DNA from: Escherichia coli
Lineage (GTDB): Bacteria; Pseudomonadota; Gammaproteobacteria; Enterobacterales; Enterobacteriaceae
DNA length: 64,000 nucleotides
Strand: one strand, 5' to 3'
Assembly: GCF_030013595.1 (NCBI RefSeq)
Contig: NZ_CP122768.1
Under the pieces are notes generated by a model. The model was not told where the DNA came from, made no database searches, and was given only the letters and a program-made list of their open reading frames with translations. Both the position numbers and the translations under genes were made by a program. How positions within the stretch are numbered: the first letter of the stretch is position 1; every line of letters starts with the position of its first letter. Positions 2,441 to 16,946 of this stretch are shown here, piece by piece.

Positions 2441-2911
2441 TTAAAAACGCGCTAGATAAGAAAATTTAAGGCTAAGTGTCCCAACGATACCCCCATCACT
2501 AGAATCATCGTCATAATCGGTATTAGAAGCTACTGGAGTGATATCTGAAATTGAGAAGCCCAAATCTTTAAAACGTGGGTTATCCGGCTGAATCTGGATT
2601 ATCTGGCAAATACCCTCATGAATTTTGGTTTCATGAATCTGAGAATACAATTGCATTTCGATAACGCATTCAGCTTGCATTGCATTACCGCCACGGACCC
2701 TATTGTAAGTCTCATTCATTCCGGTGATCCAACAAACCACGTCATCACTAAAGCCTTGCTGAGTTTGTTCTACGTTTAAAGCCAGACCTAAATCTTGTTC
2801 GATAATATCCTGCAAGGCGCGTTTGATTTTCAGTCTAGGCATATTATTAACGGTAGCGAGCATGTGTACCCCCTGCCAGAGTGATAAAGCAATCAGTTGT
2901 ATTGTCACCAT
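2441..2911 (-). CDS. Hypothetical virion morphogenesis/neck protein (156 aa as tracked; more likely ~140 aa from ATG at 2863)
   Basis: ORF track; internal ATG at 2861-2863 has a GGGGG SD, first ATG has none; sits in the head-tail module. Confidence 0.4.
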   Translation of the reverse strand: MVTIQLIALSLWQGVHMLATVNNMPRLKIKRALQDIIEQDLGLALNVEQTQQGFSDDVVCWITGMNETYNRVRGGNAMQAECVIEMQLYSQIHETKIHEGICQIIQIQPDNPRFKDLGFSISDITPVASNTDYDDDSSDGGIVGTLSLKFSYLARF

Positions 2912-7427: not shown

Positions 7428-9332
7428 TTAGAACGATGTTACCCAGCTACGGCCTCTATTTGGGCGTCTGACGATGTTTTGACGTTGTGGTCGTGTGATT
7501 GGCTTAGTTTCTTCGATTTGCTCGTCAGATTGCGATTTAGGAGCTTCTACAGGTTCTTCTGGTTCACGGTTCAAACTATCTTTGATGGCTTCGAGTTTTT
7601 CCCATGACATTTTATTGAGTACATGACGAGAAGCAGCATAGGAATAAGCCAGGCAGTCCAACGCTTCGTTTCGTGTTTGTCCAACTTTTACCCAACGTGT
7701 GGTATTACCCTGCCGTTTCAACTGTTCAGAAAGCAATTGCTCGCAATAGTCATCAGGAACGTCACCAATCTGGAAGACAGTGTGAGGATCGCCATCTCTC
7801 AAGTTCCGGTTAATCATTTCACGGATCATCGTTTTAAGGTTGTTTACGCCCAGAATTTTAAGGGTAAAACCACCCGTTCTTGTGTCTTTTACCGGAAGGA
7901 TTGGTGCATCAACATTGCTTGCGCCTTTAATGGCGGTTAGATTTTGCCACCGACTACAGAATCGATAGATCACGTTTGTAGCTCGTCCGTTCGATGAGTC
8001 CACGAAAGCAGATAACATCGGGATTCGTTCACCGGATCGGGTATAGAATTTAGCTTTCAGGAAGTTGTAAAGCTGGTTATATGCTGGTGATTCGTGGCGT
8101 TCGCAGTTCACATCATAGAATGATCGGTGATCAACTACGCATAGCCCTTTACGAGAAATACCCAGCAAGGTAGATTCCAGACGGTCTTTTTGCTGGTCAA
8201 CTCCACCTACCAGAGCCAGTACATCATCAGGAATATTGTCTAGGCTAATATCAGTTTTCAGCGTTTCTAATTCGTCGGCTGTGCGGTCTTCGTTAAGATC
8301 ATCGAAGGTTTCACCGAGGACTGTATTGTAGAACGTTGCCAGGGACATATTCGCGTAGCTATCAGCAAAGTCCACCACACACGCACGGATAGAACTAAAC
8401 GGAGACATAAGGCGGTTAGCATGAAAACCGATTACTTCCGCGTTTGGTTCGGTGGCGACCCATTCTCCCTGTCCAACAGCACGTAGGCGATCACCCTCGG
8501 TCCAATCGGTTTCACATTCAGGGCAACGGTAAACGGCTGTATCTGGGTTGGGTAATGATTTACCGTTAATCGTATGCCAATCGAAATGTACGTTACTCCA
8601 TTCCATTACGTGCTTGTGTCCGCAATGCTGGCAAACGACATGATATTTTCTCTTATCCGAGAGTTCCCATTGTTGGTTAATCGCCCCATCACGAGCGGTT
8701 GGAGTGGAAGCAATTACGATCCTTGCATCTTCCCCGAAAGTGGTTGCGCGTTGTTCCGCTAGTTGGATCGGGTTCCCTTCGTCTGACTCATCAGCCGCAT
8801 CAACTTCATCAAGAATAATCAAAGGGAGTGTTTTACCGCGAAGATGTGACGGACTATTCAACGACATGAAATACATAAACGATCCGTTACGAAGCTGAAT
8901 AATCGATGAGTTGTTAACGGCATTGCGATCTGATTTGTCGGTGATCATCGCCTTTAATTCTGGTGTTGCCTCTAATACTGGCTTCACCTTACCAGCGATC
9001 CAAGAATTTAGTTCTCTAACGTTACTTTGCAACACCCCAATATTAGTAGGGTTACTCGCGATCCGATGGAAGATAATTCCGTTAAGAATCATGGTCTTAC
9101 CCAACTGTGCCGAACATTTAAACACAATTTTTCTACGGTCTTCGGTGATCGCGTCCATCATTCCACGTTGGAAGGGATGCAATTTAATTAGCGATCCGGC
9201 TTTAACACCATCGGTTGCAACTACATTAGCCTCTACCCATTCGCTAGGTTTCATCGTTTTAGGTGGGCGAATTGCCGCAGAGATATTTTTAAGAATCTTT
9301 TTTAATTTTGCCTTGTTCGAAATCAGTTTCAT
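7428..9332 (-). CDS. Terminase large subunit, lambda GpA family, 634 aa
   Basis: ORF track; recalled lambda gpA similarity: ..HPFQRGMMDAI.. near N-terminus, Walker-A-like KCSAQLGKT, C-terminal RNEALDCLAYSYAA matching gpA RNEALDCFVYALAA. Confidence 0.85.
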   Translation of the reverse strand: MKLISNKAKLKKILKNISAAIRPPKTMKPSEWVEANVVATDGVKAGSLIKLHPFQRGMMDAITEDRRKIVFKCSAQLGKTMILNGIIFHRIASNPTNIGVLQSNVRELNSWIAGKVKPVLEATPELKAMITDKSDRNAVNNSSIIQLRNGSFMYFMSLNSPSHLRGKTLPLIILDEVDAADESDEGNPIQLAEQRATTFGEDARIVIASTPTARDGAINQQWELSDKRKYHVVCQHCGHKHVMEWSNVHFDWHTINGKSLPNPDTAVYRCPECETDWTEGDRLRAVGQGEWVATEPNAEVIGFHANRLMSPFSSIRACVVDFADSYANMSLATFYNTVLGETFDDLNEDRTADELETLKTDISLDNIPDDVLALVGGVDQQKDRLESTLLGISRKGLCVVDHRSFYDVNCERHESPAYNQLYNFLKAKFYTRSGERIPMLSAFVDSSNGRATNVIYRFCSRWQNLTAIKGASNVDAPILPVKDTRTGGFTLKILGVNNLKTMIREMINRNLRDGDPHTVFQIGDVPDDYCEQLLSEQLKRQGNTTRWVKVGQTRNEALDCLAYSYAASRHVLNKMSWEKLEAIKDSLNREPEEPVEAPKSQSDEQIEETKPITRPQRQNIVRRPNRGRSWVTSF

Positions 9333-9498: not shown

Positions 9499-9732
9499 AT
9501 GACTATGACTACTAAAGCTACTCGCGGTCGCCCTGCCCGTTATACTCGTGAACAGATGGCTGATATTGCCTACGCTTACTATACAGCGGATCGCGGGAAG
9601 GAAGCGAAAGAACAGATTCTTAGTGAACATGGGATTTCAGTAGCCCAATTCTATAAGAATATGAAGAAGTTAGACATTAAATTCTATGTTCAGATCGATG
9701 ACGGTCAGATCGTAGAAGCAACAGGTTTTTGA
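9499..9732 (+). CDS. Small putative DNA-binding protein, 77 aa (paralog of 13446..13628)
   Basis: ORF track; N-terminal RGRPARYTRE motif shared with the second small protein (ARPVKFTRE); own promoter and terminator. Confidence 0.45.
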   Translation: MTMTTKATRGRPARYTREQMADIAYAYYTADRGKEAKEQILSEHGISVAQFYKNMKKLDIKFYVQIDDGQIVEATGF

Positions 9733-9740
9733 TTCTCTTT

Positions 9741-9764
9741 GCCACTCTTCGGAGTGGCTTTTTT
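9741..9764 (+). terminator. Rho-independent terminator of the 77-aa gene
   Basis: GCCACTCTTCGGAGTGGC followed by TTTTTT. Confidence 0.6.
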
Positions 9765-9792: not shown

Positions 9793-9835
9793 TCACAATT
9801 TGTGGGAGTCGGGAAACATCCACAATTTGTGGGAG
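9793..9835. repeat. Two direct copies of CACAATTTGTGGGAGT (27-bp period), each with an 11-bp palindromic core CACAA-T-TTGTG
   Basis: Read directly; lies between two convergent terminators. Confidence 0.6.
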
Positions 9836-9844
9836 TTGGATAGT

Positions 9845-9872
9845 AAAAAGCCCCACCATTACGGCAGGGCTT
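9845..9872 (-). terminator. Rho-independent terminator of the 183-aa gene
   Basis: Minus-sense AGCCCTGCCGTAATGGTGGGGCT followed by TTTTT. Confidence 0.55.
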
Positions 9873-9876
9873 CTAA

Positions 9877-10428
9877 TCAGATTCCGAAGATGTCACATAG
9901 GTCGGCTGTGTGGCGTTCTTGTTTTGAATAGTAAATCCGTTCAGCTTCATATAACGTGATAGAATCATCATTAACGACGGTTTCAAACTCCCCTTCTATT
10001 ACCCTTTCTGTGTGCGCTTTACTGCGTAATTCGGCCTCTTCCATGCGATATAAGCCAATACAGATACTACCATATACACCATATTTTTTCTCGTCGAGAT
10101 GGCGACGACCTTTGCGTTGTTCGAACGGAAGATCGTAAGCGGTTATCTTTTTGCGGCGAACTCGATCATATCCACTCTCTTTGGCATCAATCATCATACT
10201 AATCAACATCCCACATTTAACAAGGGATTCAAGGCACTGACGAATAGAATTAGTTCTTGATTGTTTTAATTCTGGGTTAGGATCGTAATATGGATTATCT
10301 ATCCATGATTCATGAATAAGGAAATGTACGTCATCAGCCGTTAAAGGCCAACCACCAACACTTTCAACATCGGTCTTAGTACAATCAAACAGATCCAGAA
10401 TGAATTTCTTTTTGTGCGTCATTTTCAT
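9877..10428 (-). CDS. Hypothetical protein, 183 aa
   Basis: ORF track; last gene of a four-gene minus-strand operon; no family recognised. Confidence 0.45.
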   Translation of the reverse strand: MKMTHKKKFILDLFDCTKTDVESVGGWPLTADDVHFLIHESWIDNPYYDPNPELKQSRTNSIRQCLESLVKCGMLISMMIDAKESGYDRVRRKKITAYDLPFEQRKGRRHLDEKKYGVYGSICIGLYRMEEAELRSKAHTERVIEGEFETVVNDDSITLYEAERIYYSKQERHTADLCDIFGI

Positions 10429-10523
10429 AATGTTCTATCCTCAAAATACTTAAAAAGTACCATGCCGATTTTCGCGGCATGGTCAAAAAATCACCATACA
10501 CCCAATGGGCGTTTGGTTAAAAA

Positions 10524-11363
10524 TTAGATACCAAAGACAGCAAGTGATCCGGCGTTCTTACGAATCAATGCGGCGGTATTATTAACGATTGCACGAGCAT
10601 TGTTAGGCTGCGGTAATTTCAAAGTTGCTATCGTCTCTTCCTCAATCAAGCCCAATTCAACCAGCACTGGTAAACAGTCAGTTGTGAACTCAAGCTGACC
10701 ATGTGCTGATTGTCGGGCATACATGTAAGCAGGAGGAAGAACATCATAGCCACAAGGCTTACCAGAAGCATCCAGACGGCGCTCAATGTGTTTAGCCTCA
10801 CACAATCCCTTAAGAATACGTTGTACCTTCGTAGAGCCTCGTTTTTCGCCCAATAAGCGGGTTAAGCTGTGCCCGTCAATGGCACGGCGAACATGAAGAT
10901 CAATTAATTGTTCTTTTTCTTCCGCTAAAGTCAGAGCCTTACGAATCCAATCAACTTCGGTCATCTTGCTTGCGTCTGGGAAAGCGTTATTCTTTAATTC
11001 TTCATTTTCTTTCTTCAAACGCTGCCATTCATCAACCAGCATTGCGGTATAAACCGGATCGGTCTGTGCGATAACAATGTAGCTATCACGTTCAGTCAGA
11101 AGATAAACTTCAATTGGTTTGCCTTTACGGCCTAAACGGTCAGTTTTTGACCAAAACGCCACTGGCGGTTTGGTTACAATTTGAGCTTCAACCAGACGAT
11201 CAACCGTTCTCATAATATCGGTGTGACGGTTTTCACGCCCCATTAGTTCAGCAATACGCCAGGTAGAAATTGATAATTCTTTCTCTACAGAGTCATTTGC
11301 AGCAGTCAGGTCAACAGAAGAAGCAGTTTTAACAGCAGTATTCATAGTAGTAACAGTATTCAT
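10524..11363 (-). CDS. Rha-family phage regulatory protein (antirepressor-like), 279 aa
   Basis: ORF track; N-terminal ..STWRIAELMGRENRHTDIMRTVDRL.. resembles the Rha-domain pattern (recalled); C-terminal domain unrecognised. Confidence 0.5.
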   Translation of the reverse strand: MNTVTTMNTAVKTASSVDLTAANDSVEKELSISTWRIAELMGRENRHTDIMRTVDRLVEAQIVTKPPVAFWSKTDRLGRKGKPIEVYLLTERDSYIVIAQTDPVYTAMLVDEWQRLKKENEELKNNAFPDASKMTEVDWIRKALTLAEEKEQLIDLHVRRAIDGHSLTRLLGEKRGSTKVQRILKGLCEAKHIERRLDASGKPCGYDVLPPAYMYARQSAHGQLEFTTDCLPVLVELGLIEEETIATLKLPQPNNARAIVNNTAALIRKNAGSLAVFGI

Positions 11364-11451
11364 AGTAGTAATTCCCCTTTCGGTTTAGTGATATTGATCC
11401 TCCTAGTTCCGGCATCACCACCGGAACATTTTTATTTATGATAGAAATTTA

Positions 11452-11784
11452 TTACCAATCGATTTCTACTTGGTCTTCTTCATAATAAGGAATCGCATAT
11501 TCATAACGCCAATTTTCGATGATTTCACGTTCTTCATTAGTAAGAAGGTGATTGTTAACTGGAGTCGCATTGTGATTACCAGCTTCGAATTGCTCGCGAA
11601 CTTCCAGCATTGCATGAATACCAGTTAAGGACATCAGATCAAACGGAACATGCATACTACGGGAGATTGTTTCACGGGATACGCCCCAATCATTTTCTAC
11701 ATGGCTAGGGGTTACAGAAACGGTTTTGCCGGAGATTTTAACAGTCCAGTCATACAGGGATTTAGTGATGGTAAATTCTTTCAT
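11452..11784 (-). CDS. Hypothetical protein, 110 aa
   Basis: ORF track; directly downstream of a consensus promoter. Confidence 0.4.
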   Translation of the reverse strand: MKEFTITKSLYDWTVKISGKTVSVTPSHVENDWGVSRETISRSMHVPFDLMSLTGIHAMLEVREQFEAGNHNATPVNNHLLTNEEREIIENWRYEYAIPYYEEDQVEIDW

Positions 11785-11825
11785 GTTACATCCTCTTTAC
11801 AAATCTAGGTCAAATAGGTTCAAAG

Positions 11826-11883
11826 TTGTCAAGTGCGATAATCATAAAAAAGTTTGAAGATATTGTCAAATACCACTTGACAA
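11826..11883 (-). promoter_or_regulatory. Consensus sigma70 promoter (TTGACA-17-TATGAT, minus strand) bracketed by a 10-bp inverted repeat TTGTCAAGTG / CACTTGACAA
   Basis: -35 at plus 11864-11869, -10 at plus 11841-11846; inverted-repeat arms at 11826-11835 and 11874-11883. Confidence 0.5.
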
Positions 11884-11905
11884 GACACCAAAGGGTTGAC
11901 CTAAC

Positions 11906-12094
11906 TTACAGCATATCTAAGCCTTCATCGTAACCGTAGAAGCCATTCTGAGAAGAGAAGCAGATTGGTGCGTAGTCGTCGTCATCTTCGTCTTGTTCAT
12001 CTTGTTCTGGGGCTTCCTGAGCGGTTTCTTTGCCGTAGTTAAACATGGCTTCATCCAGTTCATAGTGGAAATCCTCTAAAAGAAAGTGAATCAA
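11906..12094 (-). CDS. Small strongly acidic protein (62 aa from TTG; 46 aa from internal ATG); frame uncertain
   Basis: ORF track (TTG start); acidic run EAPEQDEQDEDDDDY; an alternative overlapping frame has the better SD. Confidence 0.25.
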   Translation of the reverse strand: MIHFLLEDFHYELDEAMFNYGKETAQEAPEQDEQDEDDDDYAPICFSSQNGFYGYDEGLDML

Positions 12095-12700
12095 TCTAAT
12101 ATTATTTATAAAGAGAAAATTCTTGTTATTATGAAAGGAGTGATCTGGTAGAGTCCAAAACTGGTCTGTACTTGAAAGGTGATTGGATTCAGTCGGGCAA
12201 AGCCCTCCTTCATGTTTTGATTAAATCATCATCAAAACGAAGAAGTATCTTTAGAATATAAGATCTTTCTTTTGGAGAAATAATAATCAGGAAGCAATTT
12301 GGCAACCGAAGGTTGCAATCCCGAAGGGATAACCAATACCTTTCTAGAAAGTGATTGTTACTCACTTCGTTCGTTTACTAGAATCAGTTATCATCTGGTA
12401 TTAAATCCCTTTCTAAGAAAATCCTTTCAAAAGTGATTCTCGATGCCACGCAGTGGCGTCGCAGACGTTTGGGAGTGAGCGAAGCGAGCGAGCAAACTAG
12501 TTAATTCCTTCTAAGACCATCTAGTATCATCTAGTTTAAATTAGTTGTTACTAGAAGCAATTGGTTGGCGCTTCGCGCAGTCGGGCTAAAGCCCTCCTAA
12601 TTATCTTTTTGGTTATTTGTTGTTTTTAGTTTTACACATGAGCGTAGCGAATGTGTTATATAATATCTATGCACGCCCAATCCCCCGCTTTTTCCCCTCA
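12095..12700. other. ~600 bp hairpin-dense non-coding region (candidate structured RNA or DNA-level origin/packaging signals)
   Basis: No ORF; many short-loop hairpins (GCAACC-GAA-GGTTGC, ATCCC-GAA-GGGAT, GCCAC-GCA-GTGGC, GCGC-TTC-GCGC); CTAG-rich; ~20-bp direct repeats CAGTCGGGC(T)AAAGCCCTCCT at ~12190-12209 and ~12578-12598. Confidence 0.5.
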
Positions 12701-12743
12701 CTAAGTTAATGTTTTATAAAGAGTTTTTCTCACCAATCCTTTT

Positions 12744-12931
12744 CGGGGGCAAATTTCAGGGGCAAAAATTAGATTTTCAGGGGCAAAAATAGTGGGTTTC
12801 AGGGGCAAAAATGAGGGGCAAAATCACTGTTTCCCAGAATTTCAGGGGCAAAAATAGTGGGTTTCAGGGGCAAAAATGGGATGTGGAATCTAGGGGATTT
12901 TGGTTCAGGGGCAAAATTCAGGGGCAATTTT
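12744..12931 (+). repeat. Iteron array: 9 copies of (TTCA)GGGGCAAAAAT, including an exact 38-bp duplication
   Basis: Read directly; copies at ~12746, 12759, 12780, 12802, 12815, 12845, 12867, 12908, 12921; 38-mer TTCAGGGGCAAAAATAGTGGGTTTCAGGGGCAAAAATG at 12777 and 12841. Confidence 0.85.
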
Positions 12932-12968
12932 CATAGTGTAGGGCTAGTGTAGGTTTGAAAATCCTTTG

Positions 12969-13445: not shown

Positions 13446-13628
13446 ATGGCACGACCTGTTAAGTTCACTCGCGAAATCATCTTAGAAATGGCTAAACGCT
13501 ACTTTGAGTTAACGCCGGGTGTGAGAATTGAAGAGTGGTTTAAAAATGAGGGCATCGATAAATCAACCTTTCATAAACTGCTAAAACGATATGACATTAA
13601 AGTGAAGATTGAAGCTACCGTTTGGTAA
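13446..13628 (+). CDS. Small putative DNA-binding protein, 60 aa (paralog of 9499..9732)
   Basis: ATG with AGGAGGA SD inside tracked ORF 13353..13628 (which begins at TTG); MARPVKFTRE motif. Confidence 0.5.
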   Translation: MARPVKFTREIILEMAKRYFELTPGVRIEEWFKNEGIDKSTFHKLLKRYDIKVKIEATVW

Positions 13629-13742: not shown

Positions 13743-14684
13743 ATGTTATTTTCCGCTAACTTTTTCACTAACGAAGTAACCAACGCTAAAGCAGTTATCA
13801 AATTTGGCACCGAAGCAAACAAGAAGATTCAGCCGAAAGTTGTTGCTCATGTTTCCTTTGCGCAGCAGAAATCCGCTTTCGCTGGCTTTAAAGCACATCG
13901 TGAAGCACTGATCGCGGCTGGCTTTGGTGTTGACGGTAAACTGCCTAACGGCATTCGTAAAGCAATCGACCGCGTTAAACCAGTTAAAGACGTTGCAGTA
14001 GACCACATCGTTACTTTTACCGTTAAGAACTCTTCTGAACTGTTCCACCTGGTTATTGCTGGTGATACTGCTATCGTTTCCGCTCCTAACATGGATTTTC
14101 AGGATACCGCTGATTGCCAGATCACCTTCGGTCGTCGTAAAGAAGTTACCGGAAAAGCTAAACTGAACTTCACTAAATCCGGCAATCCTTACTTTGCTGT
14201 ATTCTTTAACAGCCACGCTACCGAAAAAGAAGTTGTAGAACTGGTTGCTTATGAAGGTGAAGAGAAAGAACGTATTGAATCTTGCGAAGCATTTCTGGAA
14301 CTGGAAGCACAGGTGAATGCTGTTTCTCCGGTTGTTGAAGATCGCTTTGCTGCACTGGAAGCACAGATCGCAGAACTGAAAGCTGCACTGGAAGAAAAAG
14401 ACCAGATTATCGAAGCACAGAAAGCTGAGATTGAAGAACTGAAAGCTAAAGAAGTTGCTCCGGTGGCAGTAGTTGAAAACGCGGCTGATGAGGCCGCAAA
14501 TGATGAAGTAGAAGTGAAAATCGATGTGATGCGTGATCCGATGGCTGCACTGCAATTACTTCGTTCTTTTAAGGGCAAATCTCATTTTTCTAGTGATGTA
14601 GAAGATGAGGAAGAAGAACAGAAACGCAATGCTGCAATGCTTCATGATGAAATGTACGGTACTAACTTTTCTTACTGCCAATAA
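13743..14684 (+). CDS. Hypothetical protein, 313 aa: unrecognised N-terminal domain, coiled-coil, acidic C-terminal tail
   Basis: ORF track; AGGAG SD; heptad-like ALEAQIAELKAALEEKDQIIEAQKAEIEELKAKE; no NTPase or nuclease motif seen. Confidence 0.5.
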   Translation: MLFSANFFTNEVTNAKAVIKFGTEANKKIQPKVVAHVSFAQQKSAFAGFKAHREALIAAGFGVDGKLPNGIRKAIDRVKPVKDVAVDHIVTFTVKNSSELFHLVIAGDTAIVSAPNMDFQDTADCQITFGRRKEVTGKAKLNFTKSGNPYFAVFFNSHATEKEVVELVAYEGEEKERIESCEAFLELEAQVNAVSPVVEDRFAALEAQIAELKAALEEKDQIIEAQKAEIEELKAKEVAPVAVVENAADEAANDEVEVKIDVMRDPMAALQLLRSFKGKSHFSSDVEDEEEEQKRNAAMLHDEMYGTNFSYCQ

Positions 14685-15345: not shown

Positions 15346-15903
15346 TTAAGACACATCAAATTCATCGTCTTCTTCTGGTTCTTGTTCTTCCGGTTCATCC
15401 ATTAATGGTAATTCTTCTTCCTCGTCTTCTCCCAAATCTGCATTTTCGAACAAGTCCCCTACTTCATTTAAACGACGCTCGATGATCTCCCTTAGCTTAT
15501 TCTTTAATGTTTTCTGGTCATTGGCAGATTCGAGAATTTCTAGGGCATCGATCGTACAAATCTGCAAAATAGTCTGCTTCACTTTCCCGCAATATTCCGC
15601 TAGTTGCTGTTCTACATAACCGACAGGAATCAGGAGGTTCATTTTTTCCTGATTCTCTCGTTCGGCTGCATCTGCCATTGCTCTTTCTCTGCGGAGACGT
15701 TCTTGATCAATCGCTTCTTTGATTGAAGTTTGTTTAAGTGGGTTAATTACGTTCTTTAGCACCCAATCGCAACCTTCCTTTGCCGGAACACGCCTCTTAT
15801 TGGTATTGTAAGGTAGTCCCCTTTCTAACCATCGCTTACCGCCACCATTCAATGTATAGCCATATAAACGGGAAATTTCTGTAAGGGTTAATTCTTCTTT
15901 CAT
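15346..15903 (-). CDS. Nu1-like small terminase subunit candidate (winged-HTH protein with acidic C-terminus), 185 aa
   Basis: ORF track; strong GGAGGA SD; GGGK and W.ERGLP motifs loosely like lambda Nu1 (recalled); first gene inside the element boundary. Confidence 0.4.
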   Translation of the reverse strand: MKEELTLTEISRLYGYTLNGGGKRWLERGLPYNTNKRRVPAKEGCDWVLKNVINPLKQTSIKEAIDQERLRRERAMADAAERENQEKMNLLIPVGYVEQQLAEYCGKVKQTILQICTIDALEILESANDQKTLKNKLREIIERRLNEVGDLFENADLGEDEEEELPLMDEPEEQEPEEDDEFDVS

Positions 15904-16350
15904 TGGTTATCCTCCATTAAATTTGCGTAATTTTATTTATTGGTTTTACGCAAAATCTAAGCGCCTAAATCGCATTCTAACGAAGGGAAAGATCCAGTAA
16001 TGGTAAGGGCTAGGAAGTGGGTTAATAGTCGCGTAGCGACCGCGCTAGGACTGCACTGATCACGTTTTAAAATCTCACACGCACATCAAAAACCGGGGTG
16101 CCGAAAACTCGCTTTATCTGACCCCGATCCAGAACCTAAATCATTTGTCAAGTCTTTCCGATTCAGTAAAGGGGAACATGCATCTAAGCTAGAGAAGCTC
16201 ATAAAGACTAAGTATGAATGCGGTGTTGTTAGTCGGGATGATATGCGAGACGGTTACACTGAAACGCTACCATTTGAAGCATTGCCGGAGATCATCACTA
16301 TCACCAACAAAATGATAAGCGAAAGCATCCTCGTAAGTAATTGATTCCTA

Positions 16351-16380
16351 AGCCCTGTCCTTGTGATGGGGCTTTTTTAT
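16351..16380 (+). terminator. Hairpin plus T-run at the element edge (third member of the AGCCCTG...GGGGCTTTTT family)
   Basis: AGCCCTGTCCTTGTGATGGGGCT followed by TTTTTT. Confidence 0.45.
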
Positions 16381-16394
16381 TGGAAAAATTTTAG

Positions 16395-16724
16395 TTATTG
16401 GGGTTTACAACATTTAGGTTTGCCAATTCGTCTGGCTAACTCTTGCTGAGTGATTTCTGACTGTAAAAAAGCATTTAACAGCAATACCTTAGAGGCGACA
16501 CTCAAAGGCACTTCAATAAAGTGATCGTGACTATTTAATGGCGAAGGTAACGGGATAAGCTCGTTATCTTCAAAATAAAAATCAAATGCGGTCAGTAAAG
16601 CATCTTTTGCCGCTTCCATCGCTTCAGCAACTGTTTCGCCCTGGGTCAACGCTTCAGGGATATCCACAAAAGAAACCATATAACCGCCTTCCGGCGCGGG
16701 TGTAAGAGTGACGGGATAACGCAT
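16395..16724 (-). CDS. hicB: HicB antitoxin, C-terminally truncated at the element junction
   Basis: Matches recalled K-12 HicB from MRYPVTLTPAPEGGYMV.. through ..ARRIGKPK, then 5 non-native codons (CCKPQ) and a stop; C-terminal DNA-binding domain missing. Confidence 0.7.
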   Translation of the reverse strand: MRYPVTLTPAPEGGYMVSFVDIPEALTQGETVAEAMEAAKDALLTAFDFYFEDNELIPLPSPLNSHDHFIEVPLSVASKVLLLNAFLQSEITQQELARRIGKPKCCKPQ

Positions 16725-16769
16725 AATTTCGACTGTCTCTCGCATGTCATTAACCTTTTTAATTGGCGA

Positions 16770-16946
16770 TTAACTCAAACCGAGTTGCTTCAGGATTGCT
16801 TTACGCAATGGTTCTTTAATCTCATCGCAGGGGTGACGCGGCATGACACTGCGCCTCCCGTGAAACCTGAGTTTTAAATGGTTGCTGCCATTCGCTACAT
16901 CGACGCCCTGAGATTCGAGCCAACGTCTGAACTCGCTTTGTTTCAC
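16770..16946 (-). CDS. hicA: HicA mRNA-interferase toxin, 58 aa, GTG start
   Basis: Hand translation VKQSEFRRWLESQGVDVANGSNHLKLRFHGRRSVMPRHPCDEIKEPLRKAILKQLGLS; below the ORF-track size cut-off. Confidence 0.7.
   Translation of the reverse strand: MKQSEFRRWLESQGVDVANGSNHLKLRFHGRRSVMPRHPCDEIKEPLRKAILKQLGLS

Follow-up and report, generated by a model that had tools for sequence, protein, structure and literature searches.

A palindrome-nested promoter and a Rha/Roi-type protein with an exchangeable N-domain in an uncharacterised prophage of Escherichia coli

What is controlled by a near-consensus promoter that lies nested between inverted repeats in a prophage of Escherichia coli? The question is raised by a locus in a stretch of 64,000 nucleotides (nt) of the E. 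coli chromosome (RefSeq assembly GCF_030013595.1, contig NZ_CP122768.1), referred to below as the window, of which positions 1 to about 16,380 form the right part of a prophage with 40-44% G+C. A first-pass annotation had described a minus-strand promoter bracketed by an inverted repeat and followed by three genes, for proteins of 110, 279 and 183 amino acids (aa), the second of which was assigned to the Rha family. In the best-supported reading the locus would be the leftward unit of early-type transcription in a so far uncharacterised E. coli prophage, temperate and about 36 kb long, in which a repressible or auto-limited early promoter drives a Roi/Rha-type regulator of lytic development; taken as a whole, we give this reading an even chance. 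The locus was compared with 19 loci from IMG/VR, the relative present in UTAK-14 and two or three more distant relatives.

The promoter was recovered both by direct reading and by a promoter scan (11841-11869, minus strand). It is a sigma-70 promoter with 11 of 12 consensus matches, consisting of a −35 hexamer TTGACA (11869-11864), a spacer of 17 nt and a −10 hexamer TATGAT (11846-11841). The perfect 10-bp inverted repeat around it is equally present, with exact 10-nt arms TTGTCAAGTG (11883-11874) and CACTTGACAA (11835-11826, at about the predicted transcription start) and 38 nt between them. An outer pair of minus-strand boxes, TAGGTCAA (11896-11903) and its inverted partner TTGACCTA (11806-11813, within the leader of about 50 nt), forms a second inverted repeat on exactly the same symmetry axis. 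The four TTGAC(A/C) boxes thereby make up a nested palindrome centred on the promoter, of which the 10-bp repeat is one layer. On the minus strand the order reads TAA(stop of the upstream gene p62)-GT-TAGGTCAA-N12-TTGTCAAGTG-GTAT-TTGACA-N17-TATGAT-TATCG-CACTTGACAA-N12-TTGACCTA-...-ATG. The −35 hexamer and the upstream arm together also constitute a 7-N7-7 palindrome, TTGTCAA-N7-TTGACAA.

Such a repeat might be a by-product of −35-like hexamers or a read-through RNA hairpin, with a constitutive promoter and no operator at all, an explanation that we consider very unlikely. Each arm does contain TTGACA, and an exact 10-nt inverted repeat alone is not rare, lying within chance expectation for 64 kb (about 15 distinct repeats with a spacer of at most 60 nt in the window; about 4.5 ten-mer hits in Markov shuffles). 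The minimum free energy fold of the promoter region pairs both sets of arms, but it is unexceptional (z = −1.7; 18 of 200 shuffled sequences fold as stably or more so), and we set the RNA-structure reading of the nested repeat aside as weak. The arrangement is more than chance because the two repeats share one axis, the boxes are clustered and they are conserved in the relatives. The 16.4-kb prophage part contains 14 TTGAC[AC] boxes in all, five of which are crowded into about 92 bp, and five boxes per 100 bp were reached by none of 1000 Markov-simulated sequences (p<0.001). Across 20 relatives little or no variation is seen in the promoter hexamers and the four boxes, in contrast to the promoter spacer and the stretches between the boxes; even in a diverged relative (L023), with its changed surroundings, the −35 hexamer, the two inner boxes and the upstream one of the outer boxes are retained. 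The perfect 10/10 match of the arms is specific to the window. Most relatives read TTGTCAAGgG, and the conserved core is therefore 8 bp, TTGTCAAG/CTTGACAA. The 10-nt arm motif has no further copy with 0 mismatches in the window, and a third copy of CTTGACAA (16145-16152), considered as a shared operator, rather looks like the −35 hexamer of another cargo slot.

The region thus has the form of an early promoter with flanking, conserved, dyad-symmetric sites, and since the boxes persist in 20 or more relatives they are likely to be operator half-sites. Of the tight repression that had been proposed, the promoter inside conserved operator-like palindromic boxes stands; the tightness does not, as no repressor was identified.

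The three minus-strand open reading frames (ORFs) behind the promoter are as had been claimed: p110 (11452-11784), the gene for the 279-aa protein (10524-11363) and p183 (9877-10428). The promoter/terminator scan placed a terminator-like hairpin with a T-run between the latter two (10483-10459), and a single three-gene operon is therefore not established. Across the relatives the unit can be divided into three slots. The first holds p110, a basic protein of 48-51 aa or a protein of 84 aa, which are not homologous to each other. The second holds a Rha gene in every relative, and the third is empty in 11 of 21 loci and otherwise occupied by p183/p178, a 214-aa protein or a 156-aa protein. Being located behind the hairpin and present in only 2 of 21 close relatives, p183 is not the core operon member it had been taken for.

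The constant product of the unit, the 279-aa protein, is a member of the Rha family. The Pfam family PF09669 (Phage_pRha) is matched by 21 of 34 full-length homologues (best E 2e-17), the protein matches PHROG_63 (E 7e-15), and profile alignment with hhalign to Roi of phage HK022 gave a probability of 98.6% (E 1e-15, 31% identity) over residues 23-176, which cover the N-domain and the linker. Domain and structure prediction, which had been put forward as a check, yielded an N-terminal winged helix of the Rha type (about residues 31-125), a helical linker (136-163) that probably dimerises, a second domain (165-250) and the tail SLAVFGI. In the AlphaFold 2 model (pLDDT 72.8) two globular domains are confident, the second being α/β and winged-helix-like. 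Foldseek aligned the model over its full length with Rha/KilAC/Roi proteins (E 1e-8 to 1e-10); against the PDB the Foldseek search of the model was not significant, and a profile search of PDB sequences was empty as well.

The C-terminal domain had been described as unrecognised. By sequence it is indeed not an ANT domain: PF03374 is matched by 0 of 34 family members, the alignment with Roi stops where the C-domain starts, before the ANT domain of Roi, and tblastn with the C-domain found no match in 50,697 phage records. By structure the description does not hold, as the domain is predicted to be a second winged-helix-like one and the whole-protein fold aligns with Rha/KilAC. In the alignment of the relatives the picture is the opposite of the one that had been assumed. 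The C-half is highly conserved with many invariant residues, its domains falling into three conserved types, whereas the N-domain is exchanged among at least seven types, between which identity falls as low as 10-40%. N and C types reassort freely, and neither of them tracks the type of the terminase, of the downstream gene p77 or of the first gene.

Rha domains have been called only 'suggested regulatory' (PMC8951638). Closest among known proteins are HK022 Roi, with its homologous N-terminal winged helix and linker and the same architecture of DNA-binding N-domain, helical linker and second globular domain, and Rha of phi80 and P22; like their genes, the 279-aa gene is a phage-encoded, non-structural one. 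It differs from Roi in that the C-domain of the latter is a canonical ANT/KilAC domain, in that the conserved SLxxFG[IL] C-terminus belongs to the 279-aa protein, and in its location, roi being found in the nin region of a lambdoid phage and the 279-aa gene in an early-left unit by the terminase gene. The 'antirepressor-like' Rha-ANT and Bro-KilAC proteins, to which the full-length Foldseek alignments extend, likewise differ from it: the 279-aa protein lacks an ANT signature at the sequence level and its C-domain is family-specific and far better conserved than its N-domain. Domain shuffling as such is typical of the Bro/KilAC-type protein class.

An antirepressor module, one of the possibilities named in the first-pass annotation, could be of the P22 immI (arc-ant) or Gifsy type. 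The 279-aa protein would then bind and inactivate a prophage repressor by protein contact, as P22 Ant, GfoA/GfhA of Gifsy and Tum of 186 do, and the small first gene would encode an Arc-like autoregulator acting on the flanking operators. We consider this rather unlikely. In P22 immI the very strong promoter Pant with its palindromic operators is followed by the small gene arc and then by ant, of about 280-300 aa, and the operator-flanked strong promoter, small gene and 279-aa gene of the locus show a similar layout. The PHROG families that match the protein are labelled 'anti-repressor Ant', its Foldseek neighbours carry the labels antirepressor or KilAC, and swapping of the N-domain could mirror a diversity of repressors. 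These labels, however, are annotations and not tests, and beyond them no tool result spoke for antirepressor activity. Homology to Arc, Mnt or Ant is lacking apart from the generic PHROG label, there is no divergent mnt-like gene, and neither the window nor the annotated relative yielded a repressor gene. The first gene has non-homologous alternatives (p110, 48-aa, 84-aa) behind an invariant operator, which makes an Arc-like cognate pair improbable. The promoter carries no LexA box (no CTGT...ACAG, sought as CTGT-N8-ACAG by direct reading of 11790-11910), the N-domain type co-varies with no neighbouring module, and the nearest characterised homologue, Roi, is annotated as DNA-binding in the HK022 record.

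If the 279-aa protein binds DNA, where might its site be? A 25-bp palindrome, ACCAAACCGCCA-G-TGGCGTTTTGGT (11150-11174; 11 of 12 arm matches), is contained in the codons of residues 64-71 of the 279-aa gene, directly after the long helix of the N-domain winged helix, and a degenerate second copy (10493-10517) follows immediately on the Rha stop codon. Most Rha N-types possess one palindrome of 24-28 bp each at the homologous codon position. Close N-types (72-82% aa identity) have wholly different palindrome cores with the symmetry kept, and the flanking codons form complementary pairs (e.g. TCC/GGA, CGC/GCG and CTG/CAG) for which no constraint at the protein level accounts. In about 20 of 26 loci, other phage families included, the best palindrome of the N-domain coding region is found at the same codon position; the canonical Rha+ANT genes L046 and L068 are likewise furnished with a co-varying palindrome there. 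Covariation was assessed on 15 distinct sequences in a gapless alignment, each fragment being centred on its own best palindrome and a common codon register not being imposed. Pairing cells amounted to 83%, against 60% in shuffles (0 of 500 reached this), double-sided changes were observed in 11 of 12 pairs, and slid controls paired at 28-45%. The alignments thus indicate that a co-varying palindrome at one fixed codon position of Rha N-domain genes, the canonical Rha-ANT genes included, is a new and real feature. Roi reportedly binds a site within its own gene, a parallel to this palindrome.

A site within the own gene would also be expected of a replication initiator of the lambda O type. 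In that case the variable N-domain would bind an origin located in the gene itself, while replication machinery, such as a helicase or the beta clamp, would be brought in by the conserved C-domain and the tail. A variable N-domain, a conserved C-domain, a crossover in the linker and an in-gene site together match the lambdoid O/ori pattern, and the tail SL(E/A)xF presumably resembles clamp-binding peptides such as QL[SD]LF. Rha-domain genes also occupy the position of replication genes in the Eru6/7/9 Stx phages (PMC8951638). As an explanation of the locus we nevertheless hold this to be most improbable. Each gene contains a single palindrome instead of the several iterons, with an AT-rich region, that such an in-gene origin would have: no 9-mer occurred meaningfully three times or more in 21 Rha genes with 150 bp on either side. 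The classical nine-copy iteron array lies elsewhere (12739-12940); tried as a target of Rha, it turned out to co-vary with the module of the gene p313 and not with the Rha N-type. Furthermore, the palindrome-bearing Rha+ANT genes occur in many phages that have separate replication modules.

Palindromes are also found between the genes. Between the terminator of the Rha or cargo gene and the convergent terminator of p77, the relatives have an array of 0-5 small palindromes, mostly of other types; the window's version of this variable array consists of two palindrome-bearing CACAATTTGTGGGAG units (9794-9808 and 9821-9835). A palindrome of the own type is present in the array in only 2 of 13 loci (L006 and L019), and the arrays are therefore not simply cognate target sites. 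The arrays belong to an explanation in which the unit is a conflict locus (superinfection exclusion, defence or abortive infection) expressed in the lysogen, with the promoter active in the integrated phage. DNA of competing phages would be recognised by the variable N-domains of Rha and by the slot-3 cargos, and the intergenic palindromes would serve as targets or decoys. In line with this, the arrays hold palindromes like those inside other Rha types, the locus behaves as a hot spot (three alternatives in slot 1, none or one of four unrelated cargos in slot 3) and the cassettes bring their own terminators; the one following p183 is an intrinsic terminator (9845-9872, minus strand). One cargo of the relatives, the 156-aa protein (L008, 6463-6933; L009, 6851-7321), joins an N-terminus that matches Rha/Ant PHROGs (E 3e-8) to a C-terminal Vsr/DUF559-like nuclease motif (YRIDGYD...EIDEPEH...) and may be a Rha-domain-guided nuclease. 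The 214-aa cargo aligned to the Rha N-domain and linker with an hhalign probability of 68%.

We regard a conflict function as distinctly unlikely all the same. The Rha gene is present in every relative and behaves as a core gene rather than as cargo, the operator-like palindromes favour repression over constitutive expression, and none of the three proteins of the window contains a toxin-like domain. The suggestion of an abortive-infection-type cargo also found no backing in PADLOC-DB 2.0, which gave no significant defence or abortive-infection match for any protein; the best hits, PDC-M04B (E 0.0028, partial) and Cmr5 (E 0.038), are not credible. Both p110 and p183 are, as had been stated, proteins of no assigned function. 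NCBIfam, PADLOC and PHROGs yielded nothing useful for them, and homologue searches characterise both as orphans that occur in this prophage family alone (8 clusters with p110, 2 with p183). An HMMER scan of 1.84 billion representatives added only three further, distant relatives of p183; the two that were looked up (P0131 and P0132) come from diverged members of this prophage family, where they fill the same slot, with a Rha-like gene directly 5' of them and the terminase gene beyond. The small p183 family thus occurs at this slot only. The small alpha/beta protein p110 was modelled as a four-stranded sheet with two helices, for which there is no credible structural neighbour. The core of p183 is winged-helix-like, and its alignment with the Rha profile is non-significant (hhalign probability 1.6%) and limited to the helix-wing segment of the N-domain.

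A feature common to otherwise unrelated products of the locus is the C-terminus. All Rha proteins, p183 and its relatives and the 214/217-aa cargos end in a similar peptide (e.g. SLAVFGI, SLEVFGL, DLCDIFGI, SLECFEI, SLCEFGV, DLAIFGI and GAMFGI), for which the pattern is SLxxFG[IL] in the Rha proteins and [ST/D]L-x-x-F-[GDE]-[ILV]-COOH across the locus. The peptide is found on the Rha protein (10524-11363) and on p183 (9877-10428, ending in DLCDIFGI) of the window, on P0131-P0133 and on the non-homologous cargo proteins of L003 and L024, and it looks like a shared short linear motif. The peptide presumably resembles not only clamp-binding but also capsid-targeting peptides. The upstream acidic p62 family ends in G/A-L/F-D/E-M-L.

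Downstream the unit is bounded by p77 (9499-9732, plus strand; own terminator at 9741-9758), a convergent small gene for a resolvase-type helix-turn-helix protein, and then by the terminase gene; upstream lies a non-coding control region of 1.3 kb with nine iterons and two strong rightward promoters. It therefore occupies an early-left operon position. The stop codon of the small acidic ORF p62 (11906-12094, minus strand) abuts the palindromic promoter region; in relatives p62 is annotated as a protein of 46-52 aa, and comparison with distant relatives identifies it as what remains of the C-terminus of a 91-149 aa protein. In most relatives, a gene of about 200 codons is located between p77 and the terminase gene, with an (ACAAG)n run near its 5' end. 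The run has 2 copies in most loci, 9 in L007 (7766-7810) and 7 in L010 (7711-7745), and since both expanded versions are out of frame the variation suggests phase variation. The window (site at about 9385) and UTAK-14 are without this gene, apparently owing to a deletion between short CTTAAT(A/C)CCGTA repeats.

In the control region, nine iteron-like copies of TTCAGGGGCAAAAAT (12739-12940) with a phasing of about 21-22 bp are positioned just upstream of two 11/12 sigma-70 promoters (12969 and 12997, plus strand), which face p91 (13446-13628) and p313 (13743-14684). The latter encodes a coiled-coil protein, and an alternative iteron type, TAGTGTAGGTTT, goes along with another p313 module in the relatives. 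The iteron region is probably a replication or early-right control region. A non-coding block of about 265 nt (12173-12436, core 12216-12292) is 85-96% conserved in the relatives. Within it, 75 nt are about 80% identical to an unannotated element that occurs twice in an intergenic region of the T4-like Krischvirus RB49 and also in about 50 related phages; the positions in L022 are 1501-1575 and about 1650-1720. A hairpin of the block shows a compensated change of stem and loop (GGGC-AAA-GCCC vs GGC-TTCG-CC), and Rfam has no match for the block.

The prophage part of the window further contains minus-strand genes for a capsid/protease fusion, a portal, a 164-aa connector-like protein and a large terminase of the GpA type (7428-9332). 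No deposited phage resembles the prophage, the closest terminase being only 44% identical, and a related region was detected in 57 of 5426 complete E. coli genomes. The relative in UTAK-14, annotated as a prophage-like island, is about 36 kb long, interrupts ycdX and encodes, at the opposite end, a large serine recombinase together with a helicase. In the window the end of the element adjoins hicB/hicA/yncJ; the right end, at about 16350-16400, has a conserved terminator (16350-16377) as its mark and abuts hicB/hicA (16395-16946). With insertion at hicB here and at ycdX in UTAK-14, the serine-integrase family has more than one attachment site. Just inside this end is a variable cargo slot, occupied by a gene for 101 aa in UTAK-14 and without an intact ORF in the window. 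The small terminase gene (15346-15903, minus strand; Nu1-like, PHROG_57, E 3e-11) is located beyond the early region near the prophage end, 6 kb from that of the large terminase, an unusual split of the packaging genes. ARAGORN called a tRNA-Gln (anticodon ttg) of 91 nt at 2586-2676 (plus strand), inside a minus-strand ORF of the tail/head region; this is an unusual length for a tRNA, and the call may be false.

Several observations weigh against a repressible promoter and a DNA-binding Rha-type product. In the most diverged relative (L024/L025) the outer boxes are not both kept: what is left is the inner block with the downstream box, and the changes in the −35 hexamer and in the inner upstream box are uncompensated. 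As the whole promoter region is highly conserved, the boxes stand out from it only modestly. Neither the window nor the annotated UTAK-14 relative yielded a CI-like repressor. The match of the window protein alone to PF09669 is marginal (i-E 0.0018, residues 34-118), and HK022 roi lacks a strong palindrome at the corresponding codons. Within ±6 kb most relatives have no second palindrome of the same type as the in-gene one, and a regulatory target outside the gene is therefore not apparent; the palindrome could also act in RNA rather than in DNA.

With these points taken into account, a repressible or auto-limited early promoter for a Roi/Rha-type regulator is still the best fit to what the analysis shows, namely how the locus is built and conserved, that its protein is homologous to Roi, that domains are swapped and that the palindromes co-vary; who binds what, and the physiological role, are inferred. 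A phage-encoded dimeric or tetrameric DNA-binding protein would occupy the TTGAC boxes and thereby shut the promoter in the lysogen or auto-limit it. As the operator is invariant, no candidate binder co-varies with the boxes; our guess, by elimination, falls on the second, conserved winged-helix domain at the C-terminus of Rha, as every other candidate is exchanged among the relatives and the operator is constant. When active, the unit would make the replaceable small p110 and the Roi/Rha-type protein, which, by analogy with HK022 Roi and with Rha of phi80 and P22, might modulate lytic development by binding DNA at specific sites. The site for its N-domain would be the type-specific palindrome in its own coding sequence and, here, again just after the stop codon. 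As a separately terminated cassette, p183 would presumably dock on the same partner via the common C-terminal peptide.

A set of three further suggestions is more tentative, and we would put it, taken together, well short of an even chance. In many phage families the codons after the recognition helix of a Rha N-domain may contain the very palindrome that this domain recognises. The heterologous palindrome arrays, the exchange of N-domains and the cargos that join Rha-N to a nuclease may be traces of conflict between related phages over such sites. The tail SLxxFG[IL]-COOH, finally, may be a docking peptide for one partner, the candidates being the beta sliding clamp and the interior of an HK97-type capsid.

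At its core the finding is a phage regulatory unit of an ordinary and, in general terms, known kind. The non-ANT C-domain, the tail common to the cargos, the exchange of N-domains and the co-varying in-gene palindrome were not found described in the literature searched. Should none of the wider suggestions hold, what is left is an ordinary unit of early regulation in a prophage not studied before. Among the regulator-like genes of temperate phages, those for Rha/Roi/Ant-type proteins are some of the most common, and the function of these proteins is poorly defined; with its invariant operator-like promoter, conserved C-domain, at least seven exchangeable N-domains and palindrome at a fixed position, the locus constitutes a natural experiment on them, and the common C-terminal peptide points to one common interaction partner. 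If the palindrome is the cognate site, the DNA specificity of thousands of Rha proteins could be read from their own genes, and the role of Rha in the decision between lysis and lysogeny would become testable. The specificity of the protein and its DNA site would then, if the in-gene recognition palindrome is true, evolve as one physically inseparable unit.

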